A stretch of DNA of 64,000 nt from Patescibacteria group bacterium UBA3466 (GTDB taxonomy: Bacteria; Patescibacteriota; Minisyncoccia; Phycocordibacterales; UBA918), in NCBI GenBank assembly GCA_002378195.1, contig DFRJ01000002.1, forward strand, positions 22,911 to 86,910. The letters are read 5' to 3'. Numbering within the stretch: position 1 is the stretch's first letter; the number at the start of each line of letters is the position of its first letter. Made by a program: the position numbers and the translations under genes. Positions 22,089 through 22,991 of the stretch are shown here, piece by piece. The notes beneath the pieces were generated by a model that was given only the letters and a program-made list of their open reading frames with translations, did not search any database and was not told where the DNA came from.

Positions 22089-22991
22089 ATGGCAAATCGA
22101 CATTTATCGCGCAGCATTGTTCTTCAGTCACTTTTTGAGTGGGATTTAAACGCGCTCGAAAAAAAAGCAGTGGGTGAAGTTTTGGGACGTAACGTAGCAG
22201 AGTTTGCTCCCAACAAGACCGATATGCCATTTATGGAAAAACTCCTCGATGGAGTCATGGCAAAACAGCCAGAACTCGATCAAGTTATCGAAAAAGCCGC
22301 GCCTGATTGGCCAATCGATCGTATTTCTCCCGTCGATCGTAATATTTTACGCTTGGGTCTTTATGAGCTCTTGTTTGCTGACCGTAAAGAAGTACCAGCT
22401 AAAGTAGCTATCAATGAGGCGATTGAACTAGCTAAGCAGTTTGGTGGCGAAAACAGTAGCCGGTTTGTAAATGGTGTGCTGGGAGCGGTTTATAAAGAGA
22501 TTGGTGAGCCTGGTAAAGATGAGCAAGGTAAGAAGCGGAAGCGAGACATTCCATTTGAGGAGATGCCAATCGAAAGGCTGTCTGGAGCAGTGGTTTACGC
22601 TGAGCACGAAGGTCAAATTTACCTGGCTCTGGTACACGATATTTTCGGACACTGGACTCTTTCTAAGAGTAAAGTGCAAGAAGAAGAAACTGTCGAAGCT
22701 GGGGCAGTGCGAGCTCTAAACGAAGAAATCGGTCTACCAATTGAGATTGAGCAAGAAATCGGCGGTAATGAGTACGTGGCGTCACATCCTGAGTCAGGGA
22801 AAGTACGCAAGCAAGTGCACTACTTCTTGGCTAAAGCTCCTTATCAAGATATTCAACTAATTAAAAAAGGTGGCCTAGATGATGCCAAATGGTTTAAAGT
22901 GGCCGATATTCTGGAATTAAACTTCTACGAGGATATCTTACCGATTGTTACCAAGGCGGTCACTGTGCTAGTTGGAAGAGGAGGGAATTAG
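22089..22991 (+). CDS. nusB: NusB (transcription antitermination factor) fused in one ORF to a C-terminal NUDIX hydrolase domain
   Basis: aa 1-140 carry NusB ([28 protein letters not shown]). aa ~150-300 carry the Nudix fold with box [25 protein letters not shown] (Gx5Ex7REUxEExGU pattern, G1 replaced). There is no stop or frameshift between the two domains. Confidence 0.75.
   Translation: [300 protein letters not shown]

Follow-up and report, generated by a model that had tools for sequence, protein, structure and literature searches.

We found that the NusB protein of a large Patescibacteria lineage continues, in the same reading frame, into a Nudix-fold domain, and that the catalytic centre of this second domain is, judged from its residues, compromised both in the protein analyzed here and in about two thirds of its relatives. 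NusB, an elongation factor universal among bacteria and usually a single domain, partners S10/NusE on the BoxA RNA of rRNA leaders. The gene lies in a 64,000-nucleotide stretch of DNA from Patescibacteria group bacterium UBA3466, here called the window, and its features are collected in Table 1. We put at roughly even odds the reading, drawn from sequence comparison, that the fusion is a NusB with a tethered module for binding nucleotides or RNA 5′ ends, with weak catalysis or none. Sequences of this so far uncharacterised architecture are already in public databases; a preliminary description of the gene knew of no characterised NusB-Nudix fusion, and the literature we searched likewise contained no description of one and nothing specific on degenerate Nudix pseudoenzymes, on NusB in Patescibacteria, on NusB together with Nudix or on what the individual residues of C. 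elegans Ap4A hydrolase do.

Table 1. Features of the nusB::nudix locus, with positions in the window
Feature	Position	Strand	Basis
rpmF (L32), upstream neighbour	21653..21985	+	Pfam L32p
nusB::nudix ORF, complete	22089..22991	+	ATG start; 300 aa plus stop
NusB domain (residues 4-138)	22098..22502	+	Pfam, TIGR01951, Foldseek
Junction motif Y135-K-E-x-G-E-P-G-K143	22491..22517	+	Alignment of species orthologues
Linker (residues 139-160): Lys-rich stretch 148-152, then [VI]-P-[YF]-E-x-M-P motif	22503..22568	+	pLDDT, alignment
Nudix-fold domain (residues 161-297), Ap4A/Ap6A-hydrolase-like clade	22569..22979	+	Pfam, Foldseek, family profile
Degenerate Nudix box S194-x5-E200-x7-R208-A209-L210-N-E212-E213-I-G215-L216	22668..22736	+	Read from sequence
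rnc (RNase III), downstream	23016..23732	+	Pfam Ribonuclease_3 plus dsrm

The preliminary description had read the gene as a NusB of about 140 residues and a Nudix fold in one frame, and had asked whether the junction was an assembly artefact. The ORF is free of internal stops and frameshifts, both peptides quoted in that description are found in it, and Pfam matches both domains, so the single-ORF fusion stands. The trivial explanation would be that an error in sequencing or assembly joined two neighbouring genes, and we regard it as next to impossible: one ORF for the identical protein recurs on 23 or more contigs that were assembled independently (Tara, JGI and two NCBI MAGs), the same architecture of 290-320 residues, with both Pfam domains together, occurs in more than 120 clusters (85-100% identity) and in 80 species genomes, and composition is unbroken across the fusion junction. 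An assembly or gene-call artefact is thus ruled out by contig replication, clusters and species orthologues alike. In the AlphaFold2 model of the window protein (mean pLDDT 91.7), both domains are confidently folded and only residues 144-150 fall below a pLDDT of 50, while the orientation of NusB relative to Nudix is predicted with low confidence (pTM 0.62).

The N-terminal half is, by profile and predicted fold, a bona fide transcription antitermination factor NusB. It matches Pfam NusB (PF01029) over residues 7-136 with E=3.2e-37 and 128 bits (cut-off 23.1), and the NCBIfam equivalog TIGR01951 (nusB) with 132.8 bits against a cut-off of 88.35. Identity to E. coli NusB is 39%, with F16 at the position of Y18. 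The model helices span residues 4-138, mostly with pLDDT >90, in the all-alpha seven-helix NusB fold, and Foldseek aligned this half to 3imq, 3r2c, 4eya and 1tzt with TM 0.84-0.88 and rmsd 1.5-2.0 Å. No second nusB or Nudix copy was found within the 64-kb window, and an Rfam scan of the same 64 kb for rRNA, BoxA-containing leaders and other RNAs returned one tRNA only.

Far from being rare, the fusion appears to be the usual form of NusB in a large lineage of Patescibacteria. Full-length orthologues are present in at least 80 species-level Patescibacteria genomes, whose names place them in Kaiser-, Adler- or Nomurabacteria, Paceibacterota, Parcubacteria or Minisyncoccia, and about 45 of the top 150 cluster representatives at 50% identity are full-length fusions, down to 27% identity in the Nudix domain. 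The gene order rpmF - nusB::nudix - rnc - smc is conserved as well: among 80 species loci, L32 lies upstream in 77, rnc immediately downstream in 76 and smc in 66, and the order also holds for P0236, a distant fusion member. In the window, rnc starts 24 nt past the nusB::nudix stop (51 nt if the start at 23043 is used), the intergenic gap contained no terminator-like site, and a promoter and terminator scan around the gene gave nothing above shuffled expectation; nusB::nudix is probably co-transcribed with rnc. No split version of the fusion turned up among the apparent stand-alone copies that we checked, P0132 being a contig-edge fragment of a fusion and P0145 an unrelated Nudix gene in a mobile element.

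The joint between the two domains is itself constrained. At eight of the nine positions of the junction motif, 78-79 of 79 species orthologues have the same residue, with position 138 occupied by L, I or M, and the consensus YxExGxPxK persists among diverse fusions. The linker that follows is about 20 residues long, contains the conserved [VI]-P-[YF]-E-x-M-P motif, evolves with a dN/dS of about 0.145 and is predicted to be partly disordered (residues 144-150).

Pfam, AlphaFold2 and Foldseek agree that the C-terminal half is a Nudix fold, as had been proposed. The Pfam NUDIX model (PF00293) matches residues 167-282 with E=2.6e-12 and 47.3 bits (cut-off 21.1), which places the domain in the superfamily, and the modelled half has pLDDT >90 and TM 0.83-0.87 to Nudix enzymes (0.87 to 3i7u and 0.85 to 1vc8). 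The top Foldseek matches were Aquifex Ap4A hydrolase, Rv2985, the Ap6A hydrolase Ndx1, MutT1, CT771 and C. elegans Ap4A hydrolase, and a family profile run against the PDB gave 3i7u (E=1.3e-19), CT771 (1e-14), Ndx1 (2.5e-13) and NUDT2 (1e-10), with the Dcp2 Nudix domain as the next-best PDB family after the ApnA hydrolases. By profile and predicted fold, the Nudix half thus probably descends from the Ap4A/Ap6A-hydrolase (NUDT2-like) clade. The clade signature W-T-x-P-K-G-x2-E-x-G-E is altered to W-T-L-S-K-S in the window protein. In a sister protein, P0223, a Nudix domain of this clade is joined to Sigma70_r4 and DnaA-type HTH DNA-binding domains.

The preliminary description had also suggested an RppH-type enzyme acting on RNA 5′ ends and had asked with which Nudix group the domain clusters. 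Membership in the RppH group was rejected on every list we consulted: BLASTP against E. coli RppH gave E=43, the NCBIfam RppH models scored at most 17 bits (best 16.8) against cut-offs of 118-139, and ApnA hydrolases lead with no RppH among the top 60 PDB profile matches or the top 50 fold matches. The broader idea of action at RNA 5′ ends stays viable, as NUDT2 of the same clade trims PPP-RNA (PMC8616924) and 30 of 79 close species orthologues have a canonical Nudix box.

The window protein does not have that box. Against the canonical G-x5-E-x7-R-E-U-x-E-E-x-G-U, E200, R208, E212, E213 and G215 are present, and the first Gly is Ser194 (codon AGT, 22668-22670); its absence had been suspected from the first reading, which passed over a further defect, the replacement of the Glu of the "RE" pair by Ala209 (codon GCT, 22713-22715). 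This Glu corresponds to E53 of E. coli RppH, and the E53A mutant of that enzyme is inactive (PMC6061791). In the close clade of the window protein, S194 and A209 are fixed, and E200, R208, E212, E213 and G215 are strictly conserved. Across the wider family, 35 of 115 fusion proteins have a canonical box, and it is found in 6 of 46 fusion representatives versus 18 of 25 non-fused relatives (Fisher p=9e-7). When 115 fusions are set against 19 stand-alone proteins, E209 is retained in 37% versus 95%, E212 in 72% versus 100%, R208 in 77% versus 100% and E200 in 73% versus 100%, and position 262 is Gly in 97% of the fusions and Glu in 53% of the stand-alones. Parsimony over 79 species infers an ancestral Glu at position 209, with 17-21 independent state changes and 7 different replacement residues. 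Because the catalytic centre appears compromised and its residues were repeatedly lost in the family, the proposal that the fusion obligatorily couples antitermination to pyrophosphate removal is unlikely to apply to the window protein (G194S plus E209A).

Yet the Nudix half is under strong purifying selection: its dN/dS, a rough estimate with dS near saturation, is 0.068, close to the 0.053 obtained for the NusB half. W189, K193, Y229, K241, Y245, W268 and Y280 are 92-100% conserved, and K193, W268 and Y280 pair in the alignment with K36, W109 and Y121 of C. elegans Ap4A hydrolase, in which we take K36 and Y121 to contact nucleotide or phosphate and E103 to be the loop Glu. Since catalytic residues have been lost while the fold and these putative contact residues have been kept, we infer that binding, not turnover, may be the selected role.

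We propose that a Nudix domain of the NUDT2/Ap4A hydrolase clade joined NusB in an early ancestor of the Paceibacteria/Parcubacteria-type Patescibacteria and that the fused gene was then passed on vertically. The ancestral module would most likely have been an active hydrolase of nucleoside-5′-polyphosphates, such as Ap4A-type dinucleotides or PPP- and Np4N-capped RNA ends. Its catalytic centre would later have been dismantled, with Gly1 becoming Ser194, the "RE" Glu becoming Ala209 and Gly262 standing where about half of the stand-alones have the loop Glu, and purifying selection would have kept the fold together with the aromatic and Lys residues that align with Ap4A-hydrolase contact positions. 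Such a module could be an accessory to the complex for rRNA antitermination and processing, a tethered reader or clamp that binds a nucleotide polyphosphate and hydrolyses it weakly if at all. As its ligand we favor the nascent rRNA leader, bound by its 5′ polyphosphate end beside BoxA; a free ApnA-type nucleotide is the alternative. Taken to its most specific form, a pseudoenzyme reader in the Patescibacteria antitermination machinery that clamps a 5′-polyphosphate or Np4N-capped leader end near BoxA, or senses Ap4A-type alarmones, the proposal is tentative, and we would sooner bet against it than for it. If it were true, 5′-end status or nucleotide signalling would be coupled to NusB/S10-dependent rRNA transcription and RNase III processing, the module would be to this lineage, in fused form, what accessory factors such as SuhB are elsewhere, and the repeated catalytic loss among species would represent an enzyme-to-binder transition in progress.

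One counterpoint to a binding module is that S194 is always paired with a residue other than Glu at position 209 (S194 and E209 never occur together in 115 fusions), with the catalytic residues otherwise strict in the close clade, and this pairing could reflect a remodelled yet active metal site instead of inactivation. Similarly, the 30 of 79 perfect boxes may mean that catalysis is the conserved function and that the variants use an alternative base. Both points favor an active RNA 5′-pyrophosphohydrolase or decapping enzyme, brought by NusB to nascent rRNA leaders, which would convert PPP- or Np4N-capped ends to monophosphate and so prime the leader for decay once RNase III has cut it out. 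The tight linkage to rnc, the position of Dcp2 as next-best PDB family, the ability of the Ap4A-hydrolase clade to act on PPP-RNA and the retention of E200, R208, E212 and E213 in the window protein are consistent with this reading, and the co-variation of S194 and A209 may be compensatory. We nevertheless consider it unlikely, as box Gly1 is lost, Ala209 replaces the Glu whose Ala mutant is null in RppH, similarity to RppH is absent, and the catalytic positions are the least conserved among the conserved-motif positions in the family; 17-21 losses, with K, V, A, I, G, S, N or T as replacements, are hard to square with essential catalysis.

The evidence for binding without catalysis would equally suit an allosteric sensor, in which the Nudix domain binds a free signalling nucleotide (Ap4A/NpnN, ADP-ribose-like or an alarmone) unhydrolysed, as in NrtR and AraR, and tunes NusB activity, hence rRNA synthesis, to the nutrient or stress state. 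The Nudix domains of NrtR and AraR are among our matches, and P0223 provides a case of the same clade joined to DNA-binding domains. However, the long, partly disordered linker offers no obvious allosteric path to the NusB surface, and in a pure sensor one would not usually expect a third of the orthologues to look fit for catalysis, so we give this reading rather poor odds. A fusion of convenience, in which a house-cleaning hydrolase of free Ap4A, NTPs or oxidised nucleotides is merely co-expressed with NusB and has no mechanistic coupling to it, seems to us improbable. Genome streamlining in Patescibacteria favors gene fusions, and the nearest relatives of known structure hydrolyse Ap4A/Ap6A or 8-oxo-GTP; against this, catalytic erosion speaks against an enzyme role, neither P0132 nor P0145 is a split version, and the invariant junction, a fusion long maintained, across 27-90% identity, and the fixed synteny suggest that the linkage itself is selected.

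A class of ultra-small, largely uncultured bacteria appears to have replaced the single-domain NusB with a two-domain protein whose second domain stems from enzymes acting on nucleoside-5′-polyphosphates. Should the module, at the antitermination complex, read or process RNA 5′ ends or Ap4A-type signals, it would represent an unrecognised link of 5′-end chemistry or nucleotide signalling to rRNA synthesis and maturation. The family also provides a natural series of close orthologues, some with the active site intact and others with it dismantled, on which purifying selection is similar; such a series suits the study of how an enzyme becomes a binding module. Public databases label the fusion simply "NusB", an annotation that hides the second domain, and metabolic reconstructions should not count the predicted Nudix half as a working hydrolase without a test.

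Comparison with known systems places each half in familiar company. Residues 1-140 superpose on the NusB of NusB-S10(-BoxA) complexes, and the core ending in FVNGVL and an aromatic equivalent to Y18 are conserved, which would fit binding of S10/NusE and BoxA RNA; the canonical NusB of E. coli, Aquifex and Thermotoga is a single domain of about 140 aa, whereas the window protein adds the GEPGK/Lys-rich linker and a Nudix domain of 140 aa. For that domain, the ApnA hydrolases (Aquifex aq_158, 3I7U; T. thermophilus Ndx1; CT771; human NUDT2; the C. elegans enzyme; mycobacterial MutT1/Rv2985) are the best profile and fold neighbours and share the W-T-x-[PS]-K-G signature (W-T-L-S-K-S in the window protein) and the aligned Lys, Tyr and Trp positions. 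Their box is canonical, whereas in the window protein Gly1 is replaced by Ser and the "RE" Glu by Ala, and a Gly is aligned to the loop Glu (E103) of C. elegans Ap4A hydrolase; most fusion members have some such defect. RppH (E. coli NudH, B. subtilis YtkD) has the same superfamily fold and an RNA 5′ end as a conceivable common ligand, but no specific similarity, and its inactivating E53A change has a natural equivalent in the window protein. Dcp2 has the same layout as the fusion, an all-alpha N-terminal domain (regulatory in Dcp2) followed by a Nudix domain, which in Dcp2 removes caps from RNA 5′ ends, but that N-terminal domain is unrelated to NusB; with a whole-chain rmsd of about 12 Å, we rejected the two-domain resemblance as meaningful.

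A precedent for joining a NusB-fold RNA-binding domain to a second domain that acts on rRNA is the 16S rRNA m5C methyltransferase RsmB/Sun, and the NCBIfam RsmB models match the NusB half with E down to 4e-16, far below their cut-offs. In RsmB the NusB-like domain, which does not serve as the NusB of the cell, is paired with a SAM methyltransferase, whereas the N-terminal half of the window protein is NusB at the equivalog level. NrtR and AraR (3gz8 and 5bs6 among our matches) use a degenerate-box Nudix domain as a ligand-binding module inside a transcription factor, but with a winged-helix DNA-binding partner and ADP-ribose-like effectors, where the window protein has a predicted RNA/S10-binding elongation factor and an Ap4A-hydrolase-like Nudix domain. 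In the E. coli rRNA antitermination complex, SuhB is an enzyme fold that serves as a structural accessory of NusB/NusE/BoxA independently of catalysis, and the NusB-containing complexes 6TQN and 6TQO were matched by the window protein. SuhB is a separate dimer of the inositol-monophosphatase fold, neither Nudix nor fused, and would offer a functional analogy for a non-catalytic Nudix module tethered to NusB.

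The ORF proposed to fuse NusB to a Nudix hydrolase is uninterrupted, both Pfam domains score well over their curated cut-offs (NusB, residues 7-136, E=3.2e-37; NUDIX, residues 167-282, E=2.6e-12), and the protein scores 132.8 bits with the NCBIfam NusB equivalog TIGR01951 (cut-off 88.35). Its N-terminal half shares 39% identity with E. coli NusB, along with a core ending in FVNGVL, and carries an aromatic residue, F16, at the position of Y18. An AlphaFold2 model of the protein, computed with 37 diverse family members as input (mean pLDDT 91.7), has a NusB domain of seven helices, a stretch of disorder at 144-150 and a complete alpha/beta Nudix domain; its pTM of 0.62 suggests that the mutual orientation of the two domains is not fixed. 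Together, these results place the protein in NusB by sequence and fold and in the Nudix fold superfamily, and confirm the sequence description from which the analysis began.

A single ORF encodes the identical 300-aa protein on no fewer than 23 contigs from independent assemblies (Tara Oceans, a JGI marine metagenome and two NCBI MAGs), always with identical neighbours, and more than 120 clusters came back from a word-indexed search at 85-100% identity, each of 298-315 aa and with both Pfam domains. This settles the concern that the junction might be an assembly artifact, a reading that we consider next to impossible. The junction shows no compositional break, and the 64-kb window contains neither another NusB nor another Nudix copy. 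The clusters are named 'transcription antitermination factor NusB' of Candidatus Nomura-, Kaiser- or Paceibacteria, and NusB-Nudix proteins carry a plain 'NusB' label in databases; the fusion goes unmentioned in the literature searched.

The fusion is not rare. Searched exhaustively with HMMER, the Nudix half on its own gave 837 cluster representatives at E<=1e-3, and the best 150 of these include ~45 full-length NusB+Nudix proteins (278-358 aa, Nudix identity down to 27%) and many further fragments that still start with the end of NusB. GTDB contigs, taken as one genome per species, contain at least 575 relatives, and every one of the best 80 is a full-length fusion from a Patescibacteria MAG, at 63-89% identity. 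These taxonomic labels are MAG titles; 'Saccharibacteria', where it comes from bulk submissions, is probably a generic label.

Gene order in the window is dnaE (minus strand), rnhB, a 113-aa ORF, rpmF, nusB::nudix, rnc (RNase III), three pilin-like genes and smc. L32 lies directly upstream of the fusion in 77 of the 80 species loci and RNase III directly downstream in 76, mostly with gaps of 10-130 nt, and SMC follows RNase III in 66. The order L32, fusion, rnc and SMC is retained around a distant fusion with 30% Nudix identity (P0236), which argues that the linkage is old. In the window, 24 nt separate the nusB::nudix stop from the first possible rnc start and no terminator-like site was found between the two genes, which are likely co-transcribed. 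The rnc start is ambiguous: from the first ATG (23016) the product has 238 aa, and public gene calls begin 27 nt later, at 23043, giving 229 aa. The pilin-like insertion is seen in only ~24 of the 80 related loci, smc following rnc directly elsewhere, and the L32 of the window has a ~55-residue C-terminal extension past the L32p match, with many Ala, Glu and Lys residues and an overall acidic character. The 113-aa ORF had no Pfam hit and no tblastn match in the 80 related loci, and may be a fast-evolving gene or non-coding.

Coordinates of the fusion gene, features around it and two outlying relatives (window positions unless a locus is named)
Feature	Coordinates	Strand	Description
113-aa ORF	21216-21557	+	between rnhB and rpmF; predicted by public gene callers
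rpmF (L32)	21653-21985	+	Pfam L32p match at residues 6-55
nusB::nudix	22089-22991	+	uninterrupted ORF, ATG start, 300 aa
Junction motif and following linker motifs	22491-22568	+	residues 135-160; Y135-K-E-x-G-E-P-G-K143
Three tandem type-IV-pilin-like genes	23763-25772	+	N_methyl motif; between rnc and smc
P0217 (577 aa)	L090 3501-5234		C-terminal partial NusB domain + Nudix domain
P0268 (315 aa)	L088 3501-4448		most distant fusion member, 27% Nudix identity

Outlying relatives of the module were found in other settings. P0217 is flanked by an NB-ARC/STAND ATPase gene and by transposase and HEPN genes, a setting that resembles a defence island and suggests that the module was co-opted outside housekeeping. 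P0268 adjoins neither rpmF nor rnc, its neighbours being Fe-ADH, PRA-CH, isochorismatase and TPR genes, and because of this different neighbourhood it may originate outside the streamlined Patescibacteria lineage. In a 379-aa protein (P0223), Sigma70_r4 and DnaA-C helix-turn-helix domains are joined to a canonical-box Nudix domain of the same clade, a further pairing of this clade with nucleic-acid-binding domains.

The proposal that the Nudix domain is of the RppH type did not survive. NCBIfam RppH models, with cut-offs of 118-139 bits, scored no higher than 17, BLASTP against verified E. coli RppH gave no match, and RppH was absent from the top 50 Foldseek and top 60 profile matches. The best Foldseek match was the Aquifex Ap4A hydrolase 3I7U (TM 0.87), and the top matches included T. 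thermophilus Ndx1 Ap6A hydrolase (TM 0.85), M. tuberculosis Rv2985 ('Nudix diadenosine polyphosphatase'), mycobacterial MutT1, Chlamydia CT771 and C. elegans Ap4A hydrolase. A profile built from 30 fusion-family Nudix halves and searched against the PDB likewise ranked 3I7U first (E=1.3e-19), then CT771 (1.5e-14), Ndx1 (2.5e-13), human NUDT2 (1e-10) and C. elegans Ap4A hydrolase (4.5e-10), with Dcp2 (3e-9) and MutT1 (1e-8) next. As ApnA hydrolases lead both the fold and the profile matches, descent of the module from the diadenosine-polyphosphate-hydrolase clade is supported by sequence and predicted structure.

The box of the window protein, S194-x5-E200-x7-R208-A209-L-N-E212-E213-I-G215-L216, departs from the canonical box of a competent hydrolase. 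Its first Gly is indeed missing, as had been suspected, and the preliminary description overlooked that Ala209 replaces the Glu of the 'R-E' pair. In E. coli RppH this Glu is E53 of 'R52-E53', and E53A is a standard catalytically dead mutant (PMC6061791); the window protein naturally carries Ala at exactly this position. Among 50%-identity representatives, the box is canonical in 6/46 fusions vs 18/25 relatives without NusB (Fisher p=9e-7), and the non-canonical 'non-fused' relatives look like fragments of fusions. Between 115 fusions and 19 true stand-alone relatives, retention was 37% vs 95% for E209, and 86% (G194), 73% (E200), 77% (R208), 72% (E212), 96% (E213) and 90% (G215) in fusions vs 100% in stand-alones; where the catalytic-loop Glu of C. 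elegans Ap4A hydrolase aligns, 97% of fusions have Gly and 53% of stand-alones have Glu. Ser194 and Glu209 never occur together in the 115 fusions. The box is perfect in 30 of 79 species-level orthologues, and 28 different defective versions are spread over the other 49; parsimony on NJ trees gave 17-21 state changes (approximate counts), with Glu inferred as ancestral at position 209 and replaced by seven residues (K, A, V, G, S, N, T). The window's own clade is fixed for S194 and A209, and Glu accompanies Gly in the two members that have it.

The Nudix domain is nevertheless constrained. The 79 orthologues share on average 0.70 pairwise identity in the NusB half, 0.63 in the Nudix half and 0.60 in the linker, and dN/dS (Nei-Gojobori, closest pairs) is, in the same order, 0.053, 0.068 and 0.145, values that are approximate because dS is near saturation. 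The Nudix/NusB divergence ratio is 1.30 in non-canonical vs 1.05 in canonical pairs, suggesting only mild relaxation. The most conserved Nudix-half residues (D184, W189, T190, K193, Y229, K241, Y245, W268 and Y280, each 92-100%) do not include the catalytic ones. In a HMMER alignment, K193, W268 and Y280 correspond to K36, W109 and Y121 of C. elegans Ap4A hydrolase, in which we take K36 to contact phosphate and Y121 to stack on adenine. Comparison across the family thus shows catalytic residues that appear dispensable in many lineages, with the fold and the ligand-contact-aligned residues retained under purifying selection. The junction motif exceeds either domain in conservation, all positions but 138 being identical in 78-79 of 79 species, and is followed by a Lys-rich run and a [VI]-P-[YF]-E-x-M-P motif; because these motifs are conserved, the linker is more than a passive tether, and the junction motif may be a docking or hinge element.

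Several functions could be imagined for such a domain. NUDT2 converts 5'-PPP RNA to 5'-P RNA (PMC8616924), so its clade is not restricted to free nucleotides, and orthologues with an intact box may still hydrolyse, as the preliminary description had it; an active 5'-end pyrophosphohydrolase or decapping enzyme in spite of the substitutions is nonetheless unlikely. A pure small-molecule sensor is somewhat less probable still, and a house-cleaning enzyme fused to NusB for convenience, to be set against the eroded box and the conserved junction, is the most doubtful of these. The reading we favour, at about an even chance, is that the Nudix domain was selected for nucleoside-5'-polyphosphate binding over hydrolysis: at least in the window protein, it would bind this group instead of hydrolysing it and would work as an accessory to the NusB/S10/BoxA antitermination complex.

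In conclusion, this wholly computational analysis shows that a genuine NusB is joined to a Nudix domain derived from Ap4A hydrolases, in a fusion that is ancient, vertically inherited and syntenic with rnc. The fusion is neither a rarity nor a new class of system, but an uncharacterised and widespread domain architecture with an unusual, recurrent pattern of active-site loss, and gives a testable entry point into how Patescibacteria transcribe and process rRNA. NusB binds BoxA near the 5' end of the rRNA leader and then travels with the elongating polymerase; because NusB holds BoxA there, a Nudix domain on a ~20-residue tether would lie near the transcript 5' triphosphate, and capture of this end would be one plausible role, with sensing of a free ApnA-type nucleotide as an alternative. 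Both roles would have precedents by analogy, in the NrtR/AraR-type Nudix sensors found among the matches and in SuhB, which has a catalysis-independent role in the E. coli rRNA antitermination complex.
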